Source: Spirochaetota bacterium (lineage in GTDB: Bacteria > Spirochaetota > JAGLSM01 > JAKPMW01). Taken from it: a DNA stretch of 64,000 bases. Below the pieces are notes generated by a model, which was not told where the DNA came from, did not search any database, and worked only from the letters and a program-made list of their open reading frames with translations. Where the stretch lies: the NCBI GenBank assembly GCA_031283155.1, contig JAITCI010000076.1, positions 14,923 to 78,922 on the forward strand, written 5' to 3'. A program made the translations under genes and the position numbers. Each line of letters begins with the position of its first letter. Within the stretch, counting starts at the first letter, position 1. Positions 14,036 through 43,956 of this stretch are shown here, one piece after another.

Positions 14036-14400
14036 GTCGTCTCGCGGCGGCAGGGGATCGCGGCAGGATAATTTCGCCGAGGAAAGTCCGGACTCCAGGG
14101 AACAAGAGTACGCCGGGTAATACCCGGGCGGGTACGTGTACCCGACGGAAAGCGCAACAGAAAGCAAACCGCCTTATTTCTCCCTAAGAAATGGGTAAGG
14201 GTGAAAGGGTGGGGTAAGAGCCCACCGCGGTTTTGGCAACAAAACCGGCACGGCAAGCCCCGTATGGAGCAAGTTCAAGCAGTGAACCGGGTTCCCGAAT
14301 GGTTCACGGGTAGAGCGCAATCAGCGTTTGGGGAAACCCGGCGCGCAGACAGATGATCCCCCCAGACAGAATCCGGCTTATAGTCTCCGCGAGACGACGC
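14036..14400 (+). ncRNA. rnpB: RNase P RNA, bacterial type A
   Basis: GAGGAAAGTCCGGACTCC (P4 5' strand), GGGTAAGGGTGAAAGGGTGGGGTAAGAGCCCACC and ACAGAATCCGGCTTATAG (P4 3' strand). The P1 helix GTCGTCTCGCGG (14036-47) pairs with CCGCGAGACGAC (14387-98). Confidence 0.92.
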
Positions 14401-15080: not shown

Positions 15081-16364
15081 ATGTCAATGCGGATAGAGCT
15101 TGCGGGGCAGGAAAAAATTCATGCGTACCGAAAGAGCGCCTTCGCGAGCGGACGGCTCCCGCCCGCGATTTTGCTTGTGGGTGCGCCTGTCTCCGGCAAG
15201 GCGAGTCTTGCCCTGGAATTCGCGAAGCAGCACCTCTGCGAATGTGGTACGCAATTCCCCGATGAACCGCCCCTCGCTCCCTGCGGCGAATGTTTTGCCT
15301 GCCGCGAAACCGCGAAGCTCAGGTATCCCGATTTTATAATGTTTTCCGCGCGCGAATTGGCACCGGCCTGCCGCGCCCTGGAAGCGATCATGGGGAGCGC
15401 GCGCGTCCGGCCGCTTCTGTTTGAGACGGAATTTCTCGCGCGGCGCGTTGTGCAGCATCTCCGCAGCGGTTTTTTCAAACTGAAGGACGTTTCCGCGAAA
15501 GAGGCGGAGAGCATTGGCGAAAAGATCGCGGCTCTGGAAACACTTACCCCTGATATCGCCCCCGAATCGCTTACGCTCGCCGACGAAGAAAATATCCGCG
15601 AGCGTCTGGCCGAGGCGATAAACACCATATCGGAACTGGACGCGCTCTCGCAGCACGCCGTTTTGCCTATCGCCGGGATTCAGGAGATAATCCGGCTTCT
15701 TGCGCGGCGGCCGCTTTTGGGGCATCGACGGGTTGTATTCATTGAAGAGATCGAAAAATTCCGGTCGGAGGGCGCGAACGCCTTTTTGAAAACCCTTGAA
15801 GAACCGCCGCCCGATACCCTTATTCTGATGACCGCTTCCAATATTGAGGCTGTGCTGCCCACTATCCGGTCGCGCTCCGCGATCCTTCCCGTTACGCATT
15901 TTACAAAGGCGGATATTCGCAGTATCGCCTTTACATATTACGGCCTGCCGGAGGAGGACGAACCGCTCGGATATACCGGGCGCGATCTCTACGCATATCT
16001 CGAATCGGCGGGCGATACCGCGCGCATCCTGCGAAACGATTTGCAGCGGTTTTTGGATCTGATCCAAACAGCGGATCGTGATCCCGCCTGCTTTGAGTTT
16101 GCGCATGACATGGACAAGCGCAAGGCCGCGCCCGCTTTTTTGTTTGCGCTCTCCGAACGCATAGCGGAGACGATCACCGCGCGGGCTCTCGATCAAAAAA
16201 ACGCCCAGTCTGATCTTTTGGCGCATTACCGCGGGATTTTTCTGCGGCGTATGCTCCGCGAGATACGCACCCTCGCGCGCGGCATACGAAAAAATAATTT
16301 CTCCGCCGCTCAGGGAATAATCGCCATCATGCAGGCTTTCTGGCTGGAGGGCGCGATGCCGTAA
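15081..16364 (+). CDS. holB: DNA polymerase III delta-prime subunit
   Basis: AILLVGAPVSGKASLA (degenerate Walker A), a Cys cluster (CECG..CGEC..C), and ANAFLKTLEEPPPDTLILM...LPTIRSRS, the classic delta-prime motifs. SD ggaga. Confidence 0.85.
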   Translation: MSMRIELAGQEKIHAYRKSAFASGRLPPAILLVGAPVSGKASLALEFAKQHLCECGTQFPDEPPLAPCGECFACRETAKLRYPDFIMFSARELAPACRALEAIMGSARVRPLLFETEFLARRVVQHLRSGFFKLKDVSAKEAESIGEKIAALETLTPDIAPESLTLADEENIRERLAEAINTISELDALSQHAVLPIAGIQEIIRLLARRPLLGHRRVVFIEEIEKFRSEGANAFLKTLEEPPPDTLILMTASNIEAVLPTIRSRSAILPVTHFTKADIRSIAFTYYGLPEEDEPLGYTGRDLYAYLESAGDTARILRNDLQRFLDLIQTADRDPACFEFAHDMDKRKAAPAFLFALSERIAETITARALDQKNAQSDLLAHYRGIFLRRMLREIRTLARGIRKNNFSAAQGIIAIMQAFWLEGAMP

Positions 16365-16551
16365 TTTTTGCGCTATGGCGGAATTTTCTTTTTTTGGGGA
16401 GCAGCAGCGACATCCTGTCGCTGCCAAAAAAATTTGCTCTTGCATAGAAAAATTTGTGCGGTACGGAGCAGTGTGTTATAATGATACACTGGTTAGGATC
16501 GCCTGCTCGGATTTGCCGATGGGCGTTTCGGGATACATAAGGAATGGTATC

Positions 16552-17901
16552 ATGCCTCCCAGGCTCTTAATTCTGGACGATGAACAGACCGTTCGCTCCA
16601 AGGCGGGGGATTTTTTCCGCGCGGACGGCTATGCGGTCAATCTGGCCGAAACTGCGGATGAGGGGCTGCGCATTCTGCACGGCGGAGAGATCGATCTCAT
16701 TGTCGTTGATTTGAGCCCCGGCAAAAGCGGTCAGAATATGATCGACGAGATACTCCGCGATTACAGCGGCATACCGATCATCATTCTGGCCGATCCGCAG
16801 TGCGTGGAAGACGCGATTGCCTGTATGCGCAAGGGTGCCTACGAGTACCGCGCGAAGCCGGTTGATCTGAAGGAACTCGCGCTTCTTGTGCAGCGCGCGC
16901 TTTCGGTGCGCGCCCTCGAAAAGGAAAATGCGAGCCTGCACATTCAGCTTCAGGATCGTTTTGGTCTGACCAATATTATCGGGCGAAGTCCCGAGATGGA
17001 GCATATTTTTGACAAGGTGCGGACAGTCGCGCCCACCAAGGCGAATGTACTTATCACGGGCGAATCCGGAACCGGCAAGGAACTTATCGCAAACGCGATC
17101 CATCTGCTGTCGGAGCGCGCGCGCTTTCCGTTTGTGAAGGTGCATTGCTCCGCGCTTGCCTCCGGTGTGCTGGAGAGTGAACTCTTCGGACACGAGAAGG
17201 GGGCGTTTACCGGCGCGAGCCGGCTGCATCGCGGGCGCTTTGAGCTGGCGAATCGCGGGACCATTTTTCTCGATGAAATTGGTGATATTGACGCTTCATT
17301 GCAGGTAAAGCTCCTGCGCGTACTCCAGGAGCGATCCTTTGAGCGCGTAGGCGGGGAGGAAACCATATCGGTCGATGTTCGTCTGGTGACGGCGACCAAC
17401 CGGGATCTCTTTCAGATGGTCGAAAAAGGGCTCTTTCGCGACGATCTGTACTATCGCCTTAACGTAGTGCTTATCCATACGCCGCCATTGCGGGAGCGCA
17501 AGGGGGACATTCCGCTGCTCGTGAATTCCTTTTTGCGCGAGTATTGCCGTGAAAACGGCATGATCGAAAAAAAGATCGATCAGCGCACCATGGCTGCGCT
17601 GGAGCAATACAGGTGGTCGGGCAATGTGCGGGAGATGAAAAACCTGGTGGAGAATCTTGTTGTGATGAGCAAGGGGCCGATAATTCAATATTCCGACCTC
17701 CCGGATTATATTCGCGAGGAAAAAAAGTCCGATACGATTGTGCTGGCCGCCGGAAAAACCCTGGATGAGTACGAGCGCGAATTGATCCTCGCCACGCTGC
17801 ATTGGACGGGCGGCAATAAGTCCCGCGCGGCCTCGGTACTCGGGATTGGGCGCAAAACGCTCCACCGAAAGCTCGAAGAATACGGGCAAACTGTATCATA
17901 A
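16552..17901 (+). CDS. Sigma-54-dependent response regulator (NtrC-family bEBP: REC + AAA+ sigma54 activation + Fis-type HTH)
   Basis: REC domain (LILDDE..D..), Walker A GESGTGKE, a GAFTGA motif (KGAFTGAS) and a C-terminal HTH. SD aaggaa before the ATG at 16552. Confidence 0.92.
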   Translation: MPPRLLILDDEQTVRSKAGDFFRADGYAVNLAETADEGLRILHGGEIDLIVVDLSPGKSGQNMIDEILRDYSGIPIIILADPQCVEDAIACMRKGAYEYRAKPVDLKELALLVQRALSVRALEKENASLHIQLQDRFGLTNIIGRSPEMEHIFDKVRTVAPTKANVLITGESGTGKELIANAIHLLSERARFPFVKVHCSALASGVLESELFGHEKGAFTGASRLHRGRFELANRGTIFLDEIGDIDASLQVKLLRVLQERSFERVGGEETISVDVRLVTATNRDLFQMVEKGLFRDDLYYRLNVVLIHTPPLRERKGDIPLLVNSFLREYCRENGMIEKKIDQRTMAALEQYRWSGNVREMKNLVENLVVMSKGPIIQYSDLPDYIREEKKSDTIVLAAGKTLDEYERELILATLHWTGGNKSRAASVLGIGRKTLHRKLEEYGQTVS

Positions 17902-17909
17902 TGATACAT
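17893..17909. promoter_or_regulatory. Perfect 7-3-7 palindrome TGTATCA-TAA-TGATACA (candidate bEBP/UAS or operator); a related half-site ATAATGATACA also occurs at 16478-16488
   Basis: Overlaps the bEBP stop codon, lies about 165 bp upstream of the -24/-12 element, and is AT-rich in a GC-rich genome. Confidence 0.4.
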
Positions 17910-18073
17910 TATCGCATTGATTCCGGAGTGGTGGATCATTGTGACACATTGGGTAGGTAATTTCGGAGCACATTGATCAGCACAGGAATAAGCATAATAT
18001 ACATGAATCTTGTAACTTATTGTGCAGCATAGAGTTAAATTCATTTTTGTTTTTTACCATGACAGGCGTAATC

Positions 18074-18090
18074 TGGCATACATAATGCAT
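18074..18090 (+). promoter_or_regulatory. Candidate sigma-54 (-24/-12) promoter TGGCATacataaTGCAT
   Basis: GG and GC are separated by exactly 10 nt as in the TGGCAC-N5-TTGCA consensus. It lies 49 bp upstream of the sigma factor ATG, and the SD aaggag sits between them. Confidence 0.5.
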
Positions 18091-18138
18091 ATAATAAGTG
18101 AGACCTAATCGGATGGGATAAGTGAAGGAGTTTGAAAA

Positions 18139-19041
18139 ATGGACGCTATGCTGGATAATGGTTTGGATAAGGTAAGCTCGTACATCAAAGAAAGCAACCG
18201 CGATGAATTTTCTTCGGGGCCGCTCTCGATTTATCTGAACGAGATCGACAAGATACCGCTTCTGACACGCGAGCAGGAAGTCAATCTTGCCAAGCGGATG
18301 GCCGCCGGGGATTTGCGTGCCAAAGAACTTCTCATCAAGTCGAACCTGCGTTTTGTGGTCAATATCGCGAAAAAATACCGCAATAACGGTTTGCCGCTTA
18401 TTGACCTCATCAACGAGGGAAATCTTGGTCTGATCATTGCCGCCGAGCGCTTTGATTATACCAAGGGGTATCACTTTATCTCGTACGCGGTATGGTGGAT
18501 CCGGCAGTCCATATTGAAGGCGCTCTCGGAAAAAGCGCGCCTTATCCGGCTGCCACTGAACCGCGCCAACGAACTCCTGCAGATCGAAAAGGTGAAGCGT
18601 GAATTTTCCCAGCGGAACGGGGATAATCCCTCGGCGGTGGAGATCGCGGAACTGCTCGATATGAAAAAGAACGACGTGAAGGATATCCTGAACGCCTCGA
18701 AGCAGTATGTCTCCATCGAGTCCCCGCTGGGATCAAGTGACCGCGACGGCAAGCTCTCCGATCTGATTGAGGACGCGAATGGCCGCGAACCCGAGCAGGA
18801 TCTGATCCAAAGAGATCTGAAAGACACGATTCGTAAAACCCTGGAGACTCTCTCCGAGAACGAGCGCGAGGTTATCAAGTACCGCTTCGGGCTTGAGGGT
18901 GTGCGCCCGATGTCGCTGAAGGAGTTGGGCAAGATGTTTGGTTTAACCAAGGAACGCATCCGCCAGATCGAGAAAAAGGCGATCAAGCGGCTGAAGCATC
19001 CCTCCAGGCGGCACAGGCTTGAGGATTACGTAAGCGGCTGA
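18139..19041 (+). CDS. Group-2 (RpoS/RpoD-like) sigma-70 family sigma factor lacking region 1.1
   Basis: Regions 2-4 are clear: SNLRFVVNIAKKY, GNLGLIIAAERFD, FISYAVWWIRQSI, and region 4 LKELGKMFGLTKERIRQIEKKAIKRL. At 300 aa it is too short to be a primary RpoD. Confidence 0.9.
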   Translation: MDAMLDNGLDKVSSYIKESNRDEFSSGPLSIYLNEIDKIPLLTREQEVNLAKRMAAGDLRAKELLIKSNLRFVVNIAKKYRNNGLPLIDLINEGNLGLIIAAERFDYTKGYHFISYAVWWIRQSILKALSEKARLIRLPLNRANELLQIEKVKREFSQRNGDNPSAVEIAELLDMKKNDVKDILNASKQYVSIESPLGSSDRDGKLSDLIEDANGREPEQDLIQRDLKDTIRKTLETLSENEREVIKYRFGLEGVRPMSLKELGKMFGLTKERIRQIEKKAIKRLKHPSRRHRLEDYVSG

Positions 19042-19046
19042 AGCTC

Positions 19047-19098
19047 TTTCCCTCGCTGCCATGACGGCGTCTGTTTTTAGCCGGAGCAGCGAGGGAAA
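19047..19098. terminator. Inverted repeat TTTCCCTCGCTGC..N26..GCAGCGAGGGAAA between convergent genes (possible bidirectional terminator)
   Basis: Perfect 13-bp arms. The inner region has GACGGCGTC + TGTTTTT. Confidence 0.4.
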
Positions 19099-19113
19099 AC
19101 ATATCTCTGCGTA

Positions 19114-19257
19114 TCAGTCCGCAACCTCCGTTACATTGCTTTGCACATATTTATCAAATTCTTCCGGGGACATTTTTCCGTTGTACATTTCCCAGAGCGA
19201 CGTCTTCAGTTCGTCCATGTTCGCAAATTTGGCGCCATCGATTTTATATTTTGGCAT
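19114..19257 (-). CDS. Unannotated small ORF (47 aa, MPKYKIDGAKFANMDELKTSLWEMYNGKMSPEEFDKYVQSNVTEVAD) with a strong Shine-Dalgarno
   Basis: AAGGAGG is 6 nt upstream of the ATG (minus strand, 19261-19270 on the plus strand). It falls below the 60-aa cut-off of the ORF track, has AT-rich codon usage, and is followed by the inverted repeat. Confidence 0.45.
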   Translation of the reverse strand: MPKYKIDGAKFANMDELKTSLWEMYNGKMSPEEFDKYVQSNVTEVAD

Positions 19258-19340
19258 AACGCGCCTCCTTGAAGTGGATCAGCTTTATTGTAGCGCCTGA
19301 AGGGCAGACTGTCAAAAGAATTTCAGGATCGCGCGGAGGT

Positions 19341-38403: not shown

Positions 38404-41391
38404 TTATACGTTCAGTTTTTCCAGGATCTGCTTCACGTCGTCGTATTCAAAATTATTGAATGCCGTCGACGCCTTGGTCAGCAAGTCGTTATTGGGTTCC
38501 CCGAAATCGTACACAAGCAGATCATTCAGGATGCGGGTTCCCTCAATCTGGTCAAAATTGTCAACTGCGGCCATCGTCTTTCGGAGGGCGTCCCGCAGGA
38601 GGCTGGCTTCCCCGGGTTTTTTGCTGACCCGTTTTGTGGGAACCTCAAAGATTGGTATCAGTTTTTTGAAGAGGTTGAAGAGTTTCTCCTGTAAATCCGG
38701 GTAGCGCTCCACGCAATACTGCATATCGCCTTCCCGCGCGGACGCCTCCAGTTTGGCGGCAGACTCGGATAACCGCATTATCCCCAGTATCGCCAGCGAC
38801 GATTTCATTGCGTGGATGGAGATCATAAAGGCGTTCAGATCCTGCGCCTCCAGCTTGTCCGCCATGCCGTCGCATTCCGACGTCAGCTTCGCGTAAAAGA
38901 ACTCGAATGTTTTCCGGTACATATCCTTCATGCCGGAAACGCGGCTCAAACCCAGCCCGGTGTCAATGTCGCTGATACCGTCAAGGGCGGCGATGAAATC
39001 ATCCTGTGTTTCGATGGTTTTCTTTTCATATTTCTCGATTGCGTTTGTGCGCACCTTTTTTTCCGGCAGCCATTCCAGAAGAACCGCTTCCATCTCGCTT
39101 AAGTCTATGGGCTTTGCGACAAACTCATTAAAGCCATTGGCCAGGAACATTTCCCGCATTCCCTGAACGGCGTTTGCGGTCAGCGCGATGATCGGGAATG
39201 TCGCGTGCCTTCCGCCGAGTTCGCGTATTTTGGCGGTCGCCTCCACGCCGTCCATTCCGGGCATCATGTGATCCATAAATACAATGTCGAAATCCTCTTT
39301 CTGCACCATATCAATGGATTCCTGTCCCGACATGGCGGTTTTTATGTTTATGTCAAAGAGTCCCATCAGACCAACCGCGACCCGCAGGTTAAACTCGTTG
39401 TCGTCCACAACCAGGATATTGGCCTCGGGCGCGCGCAGAACATGTTCCGTGGAGGCGGTCTTTTTGAATTTCACGCCGCTCTTTTTGCCTATCACTTTGG
39501 GTATTATGATCGTAAACACGCTGCCCTGCTCATACTCGCTGTCAACCAGCAGCGTACCGCTCATCATCTCCACAAAGGATTTGCATATCGAAAGCCCGAG
39601 ACCCGTTCCTACAATGTCGCGGGTTTTGTTCGTGTTGACGCGCTCAAAGGTGTTGAACAACTTGGGCAGGTCTTCCTTGCGGATGCCCATGCCTGTATCC
39701 GAAATCTCAAAAATGAGATCGTCCTCCCCGACGGTCAGCTTCATTTTGACGTGACCCTTTTCGGTGTACTTGATCGCGTTGCTGCATATATTCGTCAGTA
39801 TCTGGCGGAGCCGTATATCGTCCCCGAAGAGGTAATCGGGCAAATCGCCGGAAGTTTCATACTGGAAGTCCAGCCCCTTCTTTTGCGCCACAAAGGTAAA
39901 CATCGACGATACGTTGTCCATAAGCGCCAGGAAATCGTAATCCACGGGATTGAGCGATAATTTTCCGGCCTCGATTTTCGAGAGGTCCAGGATGTCGTTG
40001 ATCAGGCCAAGAAGCGAATGTGCGGACAGGGTAATATCCTTCACGTAGGCTTCCTGCCGCTGGGTGAGGTTCTCGTGCGCCAGAAGGTCGGTCATACCAA
40101 TAATGGCGTTCATGGGGGTGCGTATCTCGTGGCTCATATTGGAAAGGAAAGCCGTTTTTGAGGCCGACGCGGCTTCGGCGGCGAGCTTGGCCTTGTTCAG
40201 GTTTTCCTCGTAATTCTTTTTCATGGTCGCGTCGATAAAGGAGTGGAACAGCACCAGCGACCCGTCTACCCAGCGGATAATGGCGGATTTCCCGGTGAGC
40301 CATTTTTCGAGTCTGTCGTCCCAGGAGTACCCTACCTCCTTGATTTCCTCATCTTCCTTGTCGGGCCAGACCTGCGGAGAAACGCAGTAGATACACGGGC
40401 GATCCAGCCTTTTCAGCACCTTGTAGCATTTTTTGTTGAGGCAGTCCTTCTGATCCACGCCATGGGCTATTGCCGCCAGCTTGTTTATAAACACAAGGTT
40501 TTTCTCCGAGTCGGTTATGGTTATCATGGCGTCCATATAATCCATAACAGCCGAGGTCTTGTTCATTTCCGCAACGGCGTCAATCATATCGCCGATGTTA
40601 TTGGCCAGAGTCCCAAGTTCATCCCTGTGCGGGCTGCGTATCGTGTATCCCATATTGCCTTTCGCGATTTCAGCCATTGCCCTTTGCATCTTCAGGATAG
40701 GTTCCCGAATCGTATTTGATATCACAAACGACATCACGGCAGCCAGGATGATAGTGAGAAGAGTGAAGATAAGGACGGTTTCCACAGCTTCGACGTAGTG
40801 CTGCGCGACCATATCCATTTTTTCCTGTACCGTGGAGGTCGCCAGGGTGCTCAGCGCCGTCAGTCTGTCGCTTATCGCGTTTGCCCCCTGTATGCCTTCG
40901 GGGATAATCCTCCCCAGCCATACAGCGTCGTTATTGGCGACGGCTACGCGGACGTTCCGCGAGAAAACCGCAAAATCACTGTTAAACCTGGCCATAATGG
41001 CGTCGTATTGTTCCATACGCCACTGCTTGTCCGACTGGCTCAGAAAATTATTGCCCATTACGGTGTCGCGGTAATTGTTCATGTATTTGTAAAACGAATT
41101 TATCAGAAGATCGAGGTCGTCATATATCTGGGATAATTCCCTCGAGTATATGCCGTTCTCCATCAGATAGAATCTCGAGAGGTTATGAAAACGCATTTGC
41201 AGCATCACATTGTTGGCGTCGGTTAAATACATATACCGCTGCAGGGTTGAGTTTATCAGAATGGTATATTCGTTGCTGATTTTCACAAACTGCGACATGG
41301 TAATCGTGGACAGGGTTATCATAATGACAATAAGCGACCCAAACGCGAGAAAGAGTTTGTTCCGCATTTTCATGTTTCTGAGCCAGTTCAT
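38404..41391 (-). CDS. Hybrid sensor histidine kinase (periplasmic sensor-HAMP-PAS-HisKA-HATPase-REC-Hpt)
   Basis: H-box MSHEIRTPMNAIIGMTDLL, HATPase G-boxes, REC (VVDDNEFNLRV ... D ... K), and an Hpt-like C-terminus. Confidence 0.9.
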   Translation of the reverse strand: MNWLRNMKMRNKLFLAFGSLIVIMITLSTITMSQFVKISNEYTILINSTLQRYMYLTDANNVMLQMRFHNLSRFYLMENGIYSRELSQIYDDLDLLINSFYKYMNNYRDTVMGNNFLSQSDKQWRMEQYDAIMARFNSDFAVFSRNVRVAVANNDAVWLGRIIPEGIQGANAISDRLTALSTLATSTVQEKMDMVAQHYVEAVETVLIFTLLTIILAAVMSFVISNTIREPILKMQRAMAEIAKGNMGYTIRSPHRDELGTLANNIGDMIDAVAEMNKTSAVMDYMDAMITITDSEKNLVFINKLAAIAHGVDQKDCLNKKCYKVLKRLDRPCIYCVSPQVWPDKEDEEIKEVGYSWDDRLEKWLTGKSAIIRWVDGSLVLFHSFIDATMKKNYEENLNKAKLAAEAASASKTAFLSNMSHEIRTPMNAIIGMTDLLAHENLTQRQEAYVKDITLSAHSLLGLINDILDLSKIEAGKLSLNPVDYDFLALMDNVSSMFTFVAQKKGLDFQYETSGDLPDYLFGDDIRLRQILTNICSNAIKYTEKGHVKMKLTVGEDDLIFEISDTGMGIRKEDLPKLFNTFERVNTNKTRDIVGTGLGLSICKSFVEMMSGTLLVDSEYEQGSVFTIIIPKVIGKKSGVKFKKTASTEHVLRAPEANILVVDDNEFNLRVAVGLMGLFDINIKTAMSGQESIDMVQKEDFDIVFMDHMMPGMDGVEATAKIRELGGRHATFPIIALTANAVQGMREMFLANGFNEFVAKPIDLSEMEAVLLEWLPEKKVRTNAIEKYEKKTIETQDDFIAALDGISDIDTGLGLSRVSGMKDMYRKTFEFFYAKLTSECDGMADKLEAQDLNAFMISIHAMKSSLAILGIMRLSESAAKLEASAREGDMQYCVERYPDLQEKLFNLFKKLIPIFEVPTKRVSKKPGEASLLRDALRKTMAAVDNFDQIEGTRILNDLLVYDFGEPNNDLLTKASTAFNNFEYDDVKQILEKLNV

Positions 41392-41562
41392 TGCGCATTT
41401 TTCCTTTACTGTGTTTTACGGGTACGCCCGTATGACCGCCGTTCAGATATAATGTAACATGAGTACAGCTAAATTGCTATAGGTGCCTGACGCGGTGTGC
41501 TTGACGCGGCTTGCCGCCGGTTTTATTTTCTGATCTGCACCAAAATTACGGAGAAGCGGAGA

Positions 41563-43956
41563 ACCATGACGACCTACCATATATGGCAGCAGCAAAAGAC
41601 CGGCCAGACGCGCGAGGTCAGGCAGGGTTTTTCGGTGGTTTTTCTGTATCTCTCGCCCGTACTCGCGTTTTTTGCGATGAAAATATTTGATTTTGTGACC
41701 GGCCGGATGAATACCGACGCCGTGTATGTGTATCTCCAGGATTCCCTGGGCGACGCGGGTTCAAGGATGGTTTTCTTCATCGCTTTTATAGTCCTGACAA
41801 TCCTCGCGTATCTTGCGGGCGGGCGGTTTTCTGTCTGGAGGGAAAAGCGTCTCCTCGCGCGCGGGTTCCTCAAAACCGAAAATAAAACGCAATCCCTGCC
41901 CGAACTCGTAACGCGGCGTTCCATCGGCGTGGTACCCGGGGCGCAAAGCGCGCCTTACCGCTTTGTCCGCAATGATTTTTATTGTGCGGGGGTTGCTTTT
42001 CTTGTCTCCTTTGGGGTGTACCTCTTCACCATGACTCCGGAGCTCTGCACGGGGGACAGCGGCGAACTCACAACGGCCATGTATAACCTGGGCGCCGCGC
42101 ATCCTCCGGGAACGCCGCTCTTCACCATGATAGGCAAGATCTTCATCTATCTTCCGATTGGCAGCGTCGCGTACCGCGTGAACCTCATGGCGGCTTTTTT
42201 CGGCGCGCTCACGGCGGCGTTCCTGTTTTTGCTGCTCTTCCGCCTTCTGCATCGCGGCGCGGAGGAATCCGTGTGTATGCGCGACCGCCTGATTGCGCTT
42301 GCGGGATCGCTCTTCTTCGCTTTTTCGATGACCATGTGGGGCGAAGCGATAGTGGCGGAAAAATATACGCTCAACGCTTTTTTCGCGCCCGTGCTGCTTC
42401 TGGCGGCGCTGGTTTGGCAGGAGTGCGTGTTTTCTTCACTCCAAAGGGGAAAGCAGTCCTATTCGGAAAAGTATCTTCTGCTCATCGCTCTGTTGCTCGG
42501 GCTTGCGTTTACAAACCACCATCTTCTGCTGGGGTATATTCCGCCCTTTGTGCTGCTCTTTTTTGTGGTGACGCAGTTTATGGGCGAGCCGAATGTCAAC
42601 GCCGCCTGCGTAAGCAAAAATACCGCCAATATGCTTCTGTCCGCCCTGATATGCCTGATGAGTTTTCTTCTTTTGGCGGTTTTTGGCGAGCGCGCGATTA
42701 CGCTCACCCAAATCCTGTTTGCCGTATGCGCGCTCTGCGCTCTGACGGCGGCTTCTTATCTGCTTTTGTACTGGTTAAAATCGCTGACCGGTTTTTCGCA
42801 GATTCCTCTGAAATTTCAGTACACCTGCGGGGCGGTCGTAGCCGGGGTGGGCGCTCTCTCGGCGCTTGTCGTGCTGCAAAACGCCTGGAACGTCAGCCTT
42901 CTCTCCGACGAAGGCGCCGCGCGCACACTCGCCGCGATCCTGGCACCCCTTATCACGCTTGGGGCGACGGCTATCGTTCTCCTGAATCGTTTGCCCTCGA
43001 AAGGGGGCCTGCCCTCGAAAGAGGGTAAACCCGATATCCGCAGCGGTTTGCGCAAAGAAAAGCGTTTACTCCTGTGGGGGCTCGGCGTCTGGACGGCTTT
43101 TCTTCTGCTTGTGCTTTTTGAGAAGAGCGTACTCTCGGTACTGCGCCTCCCGCTCTTTTTTCTGCCATCTTCGTGGTTTGCCGATACGCGAATCCGCGAG
43201 AGTCTCGATTTTATCGGCGTGGACTGGGGGTTCACGCTTATCGCTTTGCTTGTGTATATCCTGGGCGCGACGATTGCGGTATTCGCGTATATGCGTGTGC
43301 GCAAGGGAACGCAAATCAGGGAGCGTTTTGTGGAGATGAGCAGCATCCTCTTCAAGGGAGCTTTAATCATCCTGCTGCCCATGCTGCTCTATATGACCCT
43401 GGTGATTCGCGCGAACGCCATCGCGAAAATTCCCGACCCGCCGCTTTCCTGGGGAGAAACGGTCAACGCAAGCCGTGTTATTAACCATTTTTTGCGCAAG
43501 CAGTACCCAAAGGCGAGTATGTATTCGTATAACCGCATTCCCGAGATCGCGAACGGCTGGATGAAGATGCACGTAGCGCAATATTTTCCGCTCTCTTCCA
43601 CAGTGGGGGCGAACTGGAAGGCGGGCGAGATTCTGATCGCCCTGCCTGTTTTTCTTTTGATGATTGCATTGGGTATGCGCGCGCTCTGGAAGCGCAACCG
43701 GCTGTGGTTTTGGGTTCTGCTTGCCTGTTTCGTAACTTTTAATGTTCTTCTGACCACCATGCTCTCGCCCAAGGATACCCAGCGGGACTGGTATTTTAAC
43801 CAGGCATTTTACGTTCCCTCGCATCTCATCGTGGGTATCTGGTTTACGTTCGCGTTTTACGCAATAGCGGATTTTGCGGGTAAGCGGTTTTGGCTGAAAA
43901 AACCGAAAGAGATTGCGCCCGAAGGCGCAGATCCGGAAGAAGGAGCGGCGCAATGA
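41563..43956 (+). CDS. DUF2723/TMEM260-like polytopic membrane glycosyltransferase-family protein
   Basis: GDSGELTTAMYNLGAAHPPGTPLF is characteristic of DUF2723 (protein O-mannosyltransferase-like). Many TM helices. SD ggagaag before the ATG at 41563. Confidence 0.8.
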   Translation, partial: TMTTYHIWQQQKTGQTREVRQGFSVVFLYLSPVLAFFAMKIFDFVTGRMNTDAVYVYLQDSLGDAGSRMVFFIAFIVLTILAYLAGGRFSVWREKRLLARGFLKTENKTQSLPELVTRRSIGVVPGAQSAPYRFVRNDFYCAGVAFLVSFGVYLFTMTPELCTGDSGELTTAMYNLGAAHPPGTPLFTMIGKIFIYLPIGSVAYRVNLMAAFFGALTAAFLFLLLFRLLHRGAEESVCMRDRLIALAGSLFFAFSMTMWGEAIVAEKYTLNAFFAPVLLLAALVWQECVFSSLQRGKQSYSEKYLLLIALLLGLAFTNHHLLLGYIPPFVLLFFVVTQFMGEPNVNAACVSKNTANMLLSALICLMSFLLLAVFGERAITLTQILFAVCALCALTAASYLLLYWLKSLTGFSQIPLKFQYTCGAVVAGVGALSALVVLQNAWNVSLLSDEGAARTLAAILAPLITLGATAIVLLNRLPSKGGLPSKEGKPDIRSGLRKEKRLLLWGLGVWTAFLLLVLFEKSVLSVLRLPLFFLPSSWFADTRIRESLDFIGVDWGFTLIALLVYILGATIAVFAYMRVRKGTQIRERFVEMSSILFKGALIILLPMLLYMTLVIRANAIAKIPDPPLSWGETVNASRVINHFLRKQYPKASMYSYNRIPEIANGWMKMHVAQYFPLSSTVGANWKAGEILIALPVFLLMIALGMRALWKRNRLWFWVLLACFVTFNVLLTTMLSPKDTQRDWYFNQAFYVPSHLIVGIWFTFAFYAIADFAGKRFWLKKPKEIAPEGADPEEGAAQ

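Follow-up and report, generated by a model that had tools for sequence, protein, structure and literature searches.

The Hk2-Rrp2-RpoN-RpoS pathway of Borrelia burgdorferi (BB0764, BB0763, BB0450 and BB0771), a member of the phylum Spirochaetota, is a sigma-54-to-RpoS cascade and the central virulence switch of this Lyme-disease agent. The cascade has been called novel, distinctive or unique, and three of its features have been called perplexing, namely that Rrp2 acts free of an enhancer, that Hk2 is dispensable in vitro and that Rrp2 keeps its DNA-binding domain (PMC2940757, PMC4683003, PMC11109971). The Borrelia rpoS promoter, TGGCACAGTTTTTGCA, lies 62 bp before the ATG and has its transcription start 14 bp beyond the GC; no binding of purified Rrp2 to the 238 bp upstream of rpoS was observed, activation was independent of upstream DNA, and hk2, which is located immediately upstream of rrp2, is non-essential (PMC1976401). 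A PAS domain is putatively present in HK2 (PMC7649798). Apart from rpoS, no sigma-54 gene is known in Borrelia, whose sole bacterial enhancer-binding protein (bEBP) is Rrp2 (PMC11109971). In Treponema denticola, the operon encoding Hpk2-Rrp2 (TDE1970/TDE1969) specifies a PAS histidine kinase together with a predicted sigma-54 enhancer-binding response regulator (PMC12070737). Here we analyze a locus in a 64-kb stretch of DNA (referred to as the window) from a Spirochaetota bacterium (assembly GCA_031283155.1, contig JAITCI010000076.1, positions 14,923 to 78,922), in which a gene for an NtrC-family bEBP is followed by a spacer and a gene for a sigma-70-family sigma factor. An original prediction, made from the sequence of the window, had proposed that the bEBP lies next to a sigma-54-dependent sigma gene in a cascade resembling that of Borrelia. 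This idea is supported by the conservation of a promoter, of a palindrome and of gene linkage, and we consider it quite probable that a free-living spirochaete here has a sigma-factor cascade in the form of a compact module, with the bEBP acting on the sigma gene through a sigma-54 promoter and palindromic sites.

We ran a profile of the sigma-factor family over genomes, one per species, and retained the 80 closest loci, all of which are from Spirochaetota and include metagenome-assembled genomes (MAGs) assigned to Treponema, Salinispira, Sediminispirochaeta, Alkalispirochaeta and Oceanispirochaeta; sigma identity across these loci is 53–94%. The nearest relative, L082 (sigma 95% identical), was fetched later and stands outside the elements scored below. 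In 79 usable loci we searched the coding strand, over the 300 nt that precede the sigma gene, for a GG-N10-GC element with no more than two mismatches to TGGCACN5TTGCW. Such an element was present in 74 of the 79 loci (no mismatch in 34, one in 30 and two in 10), as compared with 0/79 for the reverse strand of the same regions and 56/1580 for random windows of the same loci. The difference between 74/79 and 0/79 indicates that a sigma-54 promoter is conserved in this sigma gene family, and the element in the window, TGGCATACATAATGCA(T) at 18074–18090 (with the GG at 18075–76 and the GC at 18087–88), is at the orthologous place. This element has two mismatches to the consensus and both doublets are intact, and in sequence and placement upstream of a gene on the same strand it qualifies as a sigma-54 promoter. 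The original prediction of a -24/-12 element with GG-N10-GC spacing in the spacer is therefore borne out, although its significance comes from the 74 orthologous positions and not from the motif by itself: matches to the consensus with two or fewer mismatches numbered 19 in the window against 28.9 expected, and since there was no excess we dropped the raw motif count as evidence and used orthologous conservation instead.

Among the five loci that lacked a scored element, L071 and L060 carry TGGCA at the edge of the scanned region, and L076 has TGGCACGGTATTTGT, in which the GC has become GT; in the latter locus (L076:1200-1465) the palindrome described below and TGGCAC are kept, with TTGT in place of TTGC at -12. 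At L005:5660-5925 the sigma-54 element is absent and TTGACA, approximately 17 nt and cATAAT are found upstream of the sigma gene, which seems to have a sigma-70-like promoter instead. Loci from Treponema MAGs (L034, L037 and L042) have the sigma-54 promoter upstream of the sigma ortholog. With a position weight matrix (PWM) built from 73 orthologous promoters, the window site scores 15.8 bits and is the second best in 128 kb (both strands). The same matrix gives its highest score in the window (16.6 bits) to a sigma-54-like site, TGGTATATTCGTTGCT, at 41262–41277 on the plus strand. This sequence lies within the transmembrane-coding start of a hybrid histidine kinase open reading frame (ORF; 38404–41391, minus strand), and a TMEM260-like glycosyltransferase ORF (41497–43956) follows it at a distance of 220 nt. 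We set this site aside as a sigma-54 promoter, as it lies inside the coding start of the hybrid kinase and is probably a chance match. From the start site predicted by analogy with Borrelia rpoS, the sigma mRNA of the window would have a 5' untranslated region of ~37–39 nt.

The spacer that separates the two genes (17902–18138) is 237 bp long and AT-rich (36% GC, against 54.6% for the window), as originally described. Four CATTG repeats had also been singled out in it; all four are present and exceed expectation (4 in 237 bp against ~0.27), but the fourth begins at 17971 rather than 17970 and the repeats as a unit are not kept in the related loci L002 and L003. In the course of this check we found a 17-bp palindrome, TGTrTCA-N3-TGAyACA, which is the conserved unit; one CATTG falls inside a copy of the palindrome and another overlaps the edge of a copy. 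The window contains three copies against 0.05 expected, all of them at the bEBP-sigma locus and the only matches in 64 kb. Two, which we designate upstream activating sequences 1 and 2 (UAS1 and UAS2), precede the sigma-54 promoter, and the third precedes the bEBP gene. A scan of 870 kb of related loci, with up to two mismatches allowed, returned 62 palindromes, of which 55, distributed over 42 loci, lie 40–350 bp upstream of the promoter GG. When three mismatches were permitted, 58 of 74 loci had at least one site, including loci without an adjacent bEBP gene, indicating that the palindromes are a feature of the sigma promoter rather than of the bEBP 3' end. Their centers cluster at about -95 to -101, -134/-135 and -175, a 40-bp phasing that holds across the family. 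UAS1 is found at the same place in L002, L003 and L082, and in an alignment of the spacers of the window, L002 and L003 the only conserved islands are the palindromes and the -24/-12 element. The sequence of the intervening linker is not conserved in L002 or L003; its A/T tracts probably bend the DNA so as to allow looping. In position, dyad layout and phasing, the palindromes match the upstream activating sequences used by NtrC-type activators.

The third palindrome covers the -10 box of a candidate promoter for the bEBP gene, an arrangement that is also present in L002 (at 4334) and L082 (at 5367) and that suggests negative autoregulation of this gene, judging by the location of the site. 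Upstream of the kinase-bEBP operons of other loci we found no autoregulatory palindrome, save one weak match with three mismatches. The candidate promoter has an extended -10 element (TGtTATAAT, 16474–16482) ~70 nt before the bEBP start codon, and its -35 element matches at 3/6 positions, for which reason it was not listed by a scan with the sigma-70 consensus.

Sequence and domain searches agreed with the original prediction as to the position and NtrC-family identity of the bEBP gene and as to the sigma gene, with its Shine-Dalgarno sequence, its product of 300 amino acids and its lack of region 1.1. Both ORFs are intact, and both genes are 100% identical to those of an independent Logan assembly (L001). 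The bEBP comprises Response_reg, Sigma54_activat, AAA_lid_14 and HTH_8 domains. Its AAA+ domain (PF00158, 1.6e-69) contains GAFTGA at residues 217–222 and the Walker A motif GESGTGKE at residue 170, and a Fis-type helix-turn-helix (HTH) is located at the C-terminus (PF02954, 2.8e-14). The recognition helix of this HTH, GIGRKTLHRK, is invariant in 21 orthologs, which fits a single shared binding site. On the NtrC equivalog model the protein scores 421.8, below the cut-off of 558.6. No other sigma-54 activator is encoded in the 64-kb window.

The sigma factor scores below the cut-offs of both the proteobacterial RpoS model (TIGR02394; 281.1 against 378.7) and the RpoD C-terminal model (TIGR02393; 267.2 against 354), starts at region 1.2, and scores far lower with FliA models. 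In comparisons of structure it resembles SigA, RpoD and RpoS to about the same degree, and its close homologues are all from spirochaete MAGs. Going by this architecture it is a group-2-like alternative sigma factor; a full-length rpoD is presumably encoded elsewhere in the genome, as is general for spirochaetes. The terminator region downstream, in which the stem of the hairpin is at 19054–19069 and is followed by a T-run, is common to the sigma gene and a convergent 47-aa ORF (19114–19257, minus strand). The latter is 64% identical in L003 and is called in L001 and L082, where the gene tables give no Pfam match for it. The features of the locus are collected in Table 1.

Table 1. Coordinates of regulatory features and genes at the bEBP-sigma locus (positions in the window).
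Feature	Position	Strand	Description and basis
Candidate sigma-70 promoter of bEBP gene	16454–16482	+	TTGTGC, 17 nt, TATAAT; putative, read from the sequence
Third palindrome	16472–16488		TGTGTTATAATGATACA; over -10 box of candidate bEBP promoter
NtrC-family sigma-54 activator (bEBP) gene	16552–17901	+	449 aa; domain searches
UAS1	17892–17908		Perfect palindrome TGTATCATAATGATACA; overlaps bEBP stop codon; center 175 bp upstream of promoter GG
UAS2	17932–17948		TGGATCATTGTGACACA; center 135 bp upstream of promoter GG, 40 bp from UAS1
AT-rich linker with A/T tracts	17949–18073		34% GC; between enhancer sites and promoter
Sigma-54 -24/-12 promoter	18074–18089	+	TGGCATacataaTGCA, read as TGGCAT-ACATA-ATGCA; sequence, PWM, orthologous position
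Predicted transcription start	18100–18102	+	12–14 nt after GC doublet; by analogy with Borrelia rpoS start
Shine-Dalgarno sequence	18124–18130	+	GAAGGAG; 8 nt before ATG
Sigma-70-family factor gene	18139–19041	+	300 aa; regions 1.2, 2, 3 and 4, without region 1.1
Terminator region	19047–19099		13-bp inverted repeat CTTTCCCTCGCTGC / GCAGCGAGGGAAA enclosing a shorter hairpin, then T-run

The association between the two genes, and between the bEBP and a kinase, extends well beyond the window. In the two nearest sigma clusters, 11 of 12 loci have a bEBP ortholog (49–76% identity) as the gene immediately preceding the sigma gene. The large remaining cluster has 10 loci in which the ortholog, as part of a kinase-bEBP pair, is found 3–6 kb upstream in the orientation of the sigma gene. 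Across 21 loci with a bEBP ortholog, 18 have a gene for a ~390-aa cytoplasmic PAS-HisKA-HATPase_c kinase that abuts or overlaps the bEBP start; two of the three exceptions are cut by the edge of the locus and the third is the window, where the gene that directly precedes the bEBP gene is holB, encoding DNA polymerase III delta'. The interval between holB and the bEBP gene holds the PAS kinase gene in L002 and nothing in the window; in L082 (L082:1749-5301) it holds genes for a 714-aa D12-class DNA methyltransferase and a 422-aa protein with HD/HD_5 domains. In a large Spirochaetales/Treponema-like cluster (L014–L081, about 36–39 of the 80 loci) the neighbors of the sigma gene are themselves conserved (e.g. 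L038:5090-5767 and L017:7038-9710): just upstream is a protein of ~225 aa that lacks a Pfam match and has a SEC-C-like Cys motif at its C-terminus, just downstream is pyruvate phosphate dikinase, and a RadC/DinG-like helicase lies ~3.8 kb upstream.

Elsewhere in the window, a bacterial RNase P RNA of class A (14042–14396, plus strand; 254.8 bits) is located between a hypothetical gene and a CheX-like gene. An Rfam scan of 16360–19320, with E values up to 1, matched no family. We rejected as a gene a 453-aa ORF at 15084–16445 (minus strand), antisense to holB, which has no Pfam match and is most likely spurious, as is common in GC-rich coding sequence.

Several observations weigh against the existence of a functional sigma-54-driven cascade at this locus, and we considered them alongside the explanations that they might favor. 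The -24/-12 match could be fortuitous, with the sigma gene transcribed by sigma-70 RNA polymerase only, from ATGACA-16-CATAAT, from TATAAT or by read-through from the bEBP gene. The window promoter is among the weakest in its family (median PWM score 24.4 bits, minimum 14.8) and, alone among the 74 scored elements, has an A at the first T of TTGC; its score falls within the range of the best scores of shuffled windows (mean 11.8, maximum 18.7), a site of 15.8 bits could arise by chance in 128 kb, and, as noted above, two-mismatch matches to the consensus are no commoner than chance. No rpoN gene was found in the 64-kb window, and no RpoN box in the window or the 80 related loci, although we infer from the intact GAFTGA of the bEBP that rpoN is present elsewhere in the genome. 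Moreover, the ATGACA-16-CATAAT sequence (18059–18086), which matches at 10/12 positions, overlaps the sigma-54 element, and no terminator-like site was found between the bEBP and sigma genes. However, chance would not be expected to place the element at the orthologous position in 74/79 loci against 0/79 on the other strand, and the element is present in L082, L002 and L003, with that of L082 (TGGCATACAAGATGCT) carrying the same A variant. Sigma-70-like sites, in turn, number three in the region against 2.5 expected in shuffles, and the CATAAT, which is not kept in L002 or L003, falls in the N5 stretch of the sigma-54 element, where the sequence varies. The original prediction had suggested dual sigma-70/sigma-54 control through a TATAAT at the -12 element. 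The hexamer does exist, at 18090–18095 rather than 18089–18094, but there is no -35 box at 16–18 bp from it, and at this place it is missing from L002 and L003, the nearest relative L082 alone having it; we therefore rejected dual control. Across the family the GC is generally followed by an A/T-rich stretch, which fits a melting region. Read-through from the bEBP promoter is a more plausible sigma-70 input to the sigma gene than are the sites in the spacer. Taking these points together, we judge control by sigma-70 alone to be highly improbable, and the least probable of the explanations weighed here.

The sigma-54 promoter might instead be genuine but driven by a different bEBP, with the palindromes bound by some other regulator such as a repressor. 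That the bEBP of the window is the protein that binds the palindromes is something we infer, its gene is non-adjacent to the sigma gene in 64 loci (most of the family), and its receiver in the window is aberrant. Yet the palindromes lie at classic enhancer distances with 40-bp phasing, their 7-N3-7 dyad layout is that of NtrC sites, and in the window, L002 and L082 the bEBP gene has a copy at its promoter. In addition, there are almost no palindromes elsewhere in the 870 kb, pointing to a dedicated regulator, the recognition helix of the bEBP is invariant, and the window encodes no sigma-54 activator other than this bEBP. Action of another bEBP thus appears unlikely. We regard as very unlikely, and less probable than that alternative, that the module is decaying in the lineage of the window, with the bEBP either locked in the off state or constitutively active, and with a sigma-54 input that no longer responds to signal. 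A missing kinase and a degenerate receiver may indeed mean that the switch is weakened or decaying here. No kinase ortholog was found in the 64-kb window, so that the pairing of bEBP and PAS kinase genes seen in Borrelia is not found there, and the kinase is absent from L082 as well. The window receiver (PF00072, 1.3e-15) has T80A, DPQ in place of GHG at 81–83, T101A and a deletion of one residue after D53; every other aligned ortholog covering the segment has the switch Thr/Ser residue (Thr) where the window has Ala80, the GHG that DPQ replaces is nearly invariant in the family, and T101A precedes the conserved Lys-Pro. Its identity to the distant ortholog L033 is 34%, as compared with 46% for L002 and 56% for L003, whereas for the AAA+ domain the corresponding values are equal (59%, 57% and 58%), and the promoter score is near the family minimum with a weakened -12 region. 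On the other hand, both ORFs are intact, the AAA+ domain and the HTH are 84% and 80% identical to those of L002, residues D9, D10, D53 and K102 are kept and UAS1 is a perfect palindrome. Changes of the same kind are found in the receiver of L082 (DE for DD, LLAEQRS for ILTGHGT and an insertion after the Asp); L002, in which the kinase is present, has a canonical receiver. The same state in two diverged relatives, the window and L082, argues for a maintained alternative mode. Divergence of the receiver at equal AAA+ identity indicates that kinase loss goes with a relaxed or changed constraint on the receiver, and, with the kinase missing and receiver switch residues lost, the activator of the window is probably controlled in another way: through its own level, small phosphodonors or another kinase, or with no phosphorylation at all. 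The sequence changes suggest that in this sub-lineage the bEBP is probably outside the usual phosphorelay control.

In the cascade that we favor for this locus, dimers of the bEBP would bind through the Fis-type HTH to the palindromes centered 175 and 135 bp upstream of the -24 GG, assemble into an AAA+ ring and loop over the AT-rich linker. Using its GAFTGA loop and ATP, the bEBP would then open the closed complex formed by sigma-54 RNA polymerase at TGGCAT-N5-ATGCA (18074–18089). Transcription from a start near 18100 would give the mRNA of the group-2-like sigma factor, which would in turn redirect RNA polymerase to a regulon of its own. By occupying the palindrome over the -10 box of its promoter, the activator may limit its own synthesis, and, there being no terminator between the genes, read-through from the bEBP promoter may supply a basal amount of sigma mRNA. 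In most relatives, the cytoplasmic PAS histidine kinase encoded upstream would control the bEBP. As far as the sequences go, a regulator-enhancer-promoter-sigma module is conserved across many Spirochaetota, and the window contains a cis-linked, kinase-less form of it with an atypical receiver. For the window itself this provides a well-supported annotation of a regulator, its candidate sites, a promoter and a target gene; more broadly, it provides a comparative framework and a concrete candidate binding site for the Rrp2 family, together with a natural kinase-less form of the circuit.

Outside the spirochaetes, the closest parallel for the arrangement of sites is enteric NtrC, for which pairs of 17-bp dyads (7-N3-7) located ~100–140 bp upstream of a sigma-54 promoter serve as enhancers, and which also represses sigma-70 promoters (glnAp1/glnLp) by binding over them. 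The palindromes of the window have the same layout as the NtrC sites at glnAp2 and at glnAp1/glnLp. The site itself differs, being TGTGTCA-N3-TGACACA in the window and TGCACCA-N3-TGGTGCA for enteric NtrC, as does the target, which is a sigma-factor gene in the window and nitrogen metabolism in the case of NtrC. Flagellar cascades that run from sigma-54 to FliA (FleQ/FlrA/FlgR) likewise have a sigma-54 activator controlling another sigma factor; the downstream sigma there belongs to group 3 (sigma-28), whereas that of the window is RpoD-like, with regions 1.2 to 4.

Within the spirochaetes, the Hpk2-Rrp2 pair of T. denticola resembles the relatives of the window in combining a PAS kinase with a bEBP, the window itself being without the kinase; in the literature examined, no reported link between T. 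denticola Rrp2 and a sigma gene turned up. A limited literature search found no report of the cascade or of its enhancer outside Borrelia, and our comparison suggests that a circuit of this kind, with a conserved enhancer and a linked PAS kinase, is widespread among spirochaetes, both free-living and host-associated. The systems of Borrelia and of the window both come from the phylum Spirochaetota, both have an NtrC-type bEBP, and both have a sigma-54 promoter directly upstream of a short RpoD-like sigma gene. The two promoters are nearly identical, that of Borrelia (TGGCACAGTTTTTGCA) lying 62 bp before the ATG (PMC1976401) and that of the window (TGGCATACATAATGCA) ~50 bp before it. In the relatives of the window the PAS kinase gene is immediately upstream of the bEBP gene, like hk2-rrp2, and in the family of the window the bEBP appears to be dedicated to one promoter, as is Rrp2 in Borrelia (PMC11109971). 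Unlike in Borrelia, the bEBP and sigma genes are adjacent in the window, the kinase is missing and the receiver is remodelled, and conserved palindromic candidate enhancers are present in the family at -95, -135 and -175, whereas Borrelia Rrp2 is enhancer-free (PMC1976401); Borrelia in turn has BosR control of mRNA stability in addition. Among the best 150 matches in a profile search of 1.8 billion representatives, there was no obvious Borrelia-like sigma factor (~268 aa, AT-rich) by length and composition. Because the source organism is itself a spirochaete, the resemblance to Borrelia probably reflects common descent and not only similar logic, with the sigma factor and bEBP of the window probably derived from the same ancestor as RpoS and Rrp2. 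We lean, by a little, toward the broader view that many Spirochaetota have in common an ancestral module, a kinase-bEBP/sigma-54/RpoD-like sigma cascade whose TGTGTCA-N3-TGACACA enhancers are phased, from which the Borrelia switch is derived through loss of the enhancers and the sub-lineage of the window is a second derivative, with loss of the kinase and remodelling of the receiver. If so, the palindrome predicts the DNA site of the Rrp2 family, and this ancestry could help explain why Borrelia Rrp2 retains its HTH and is essential for viability.

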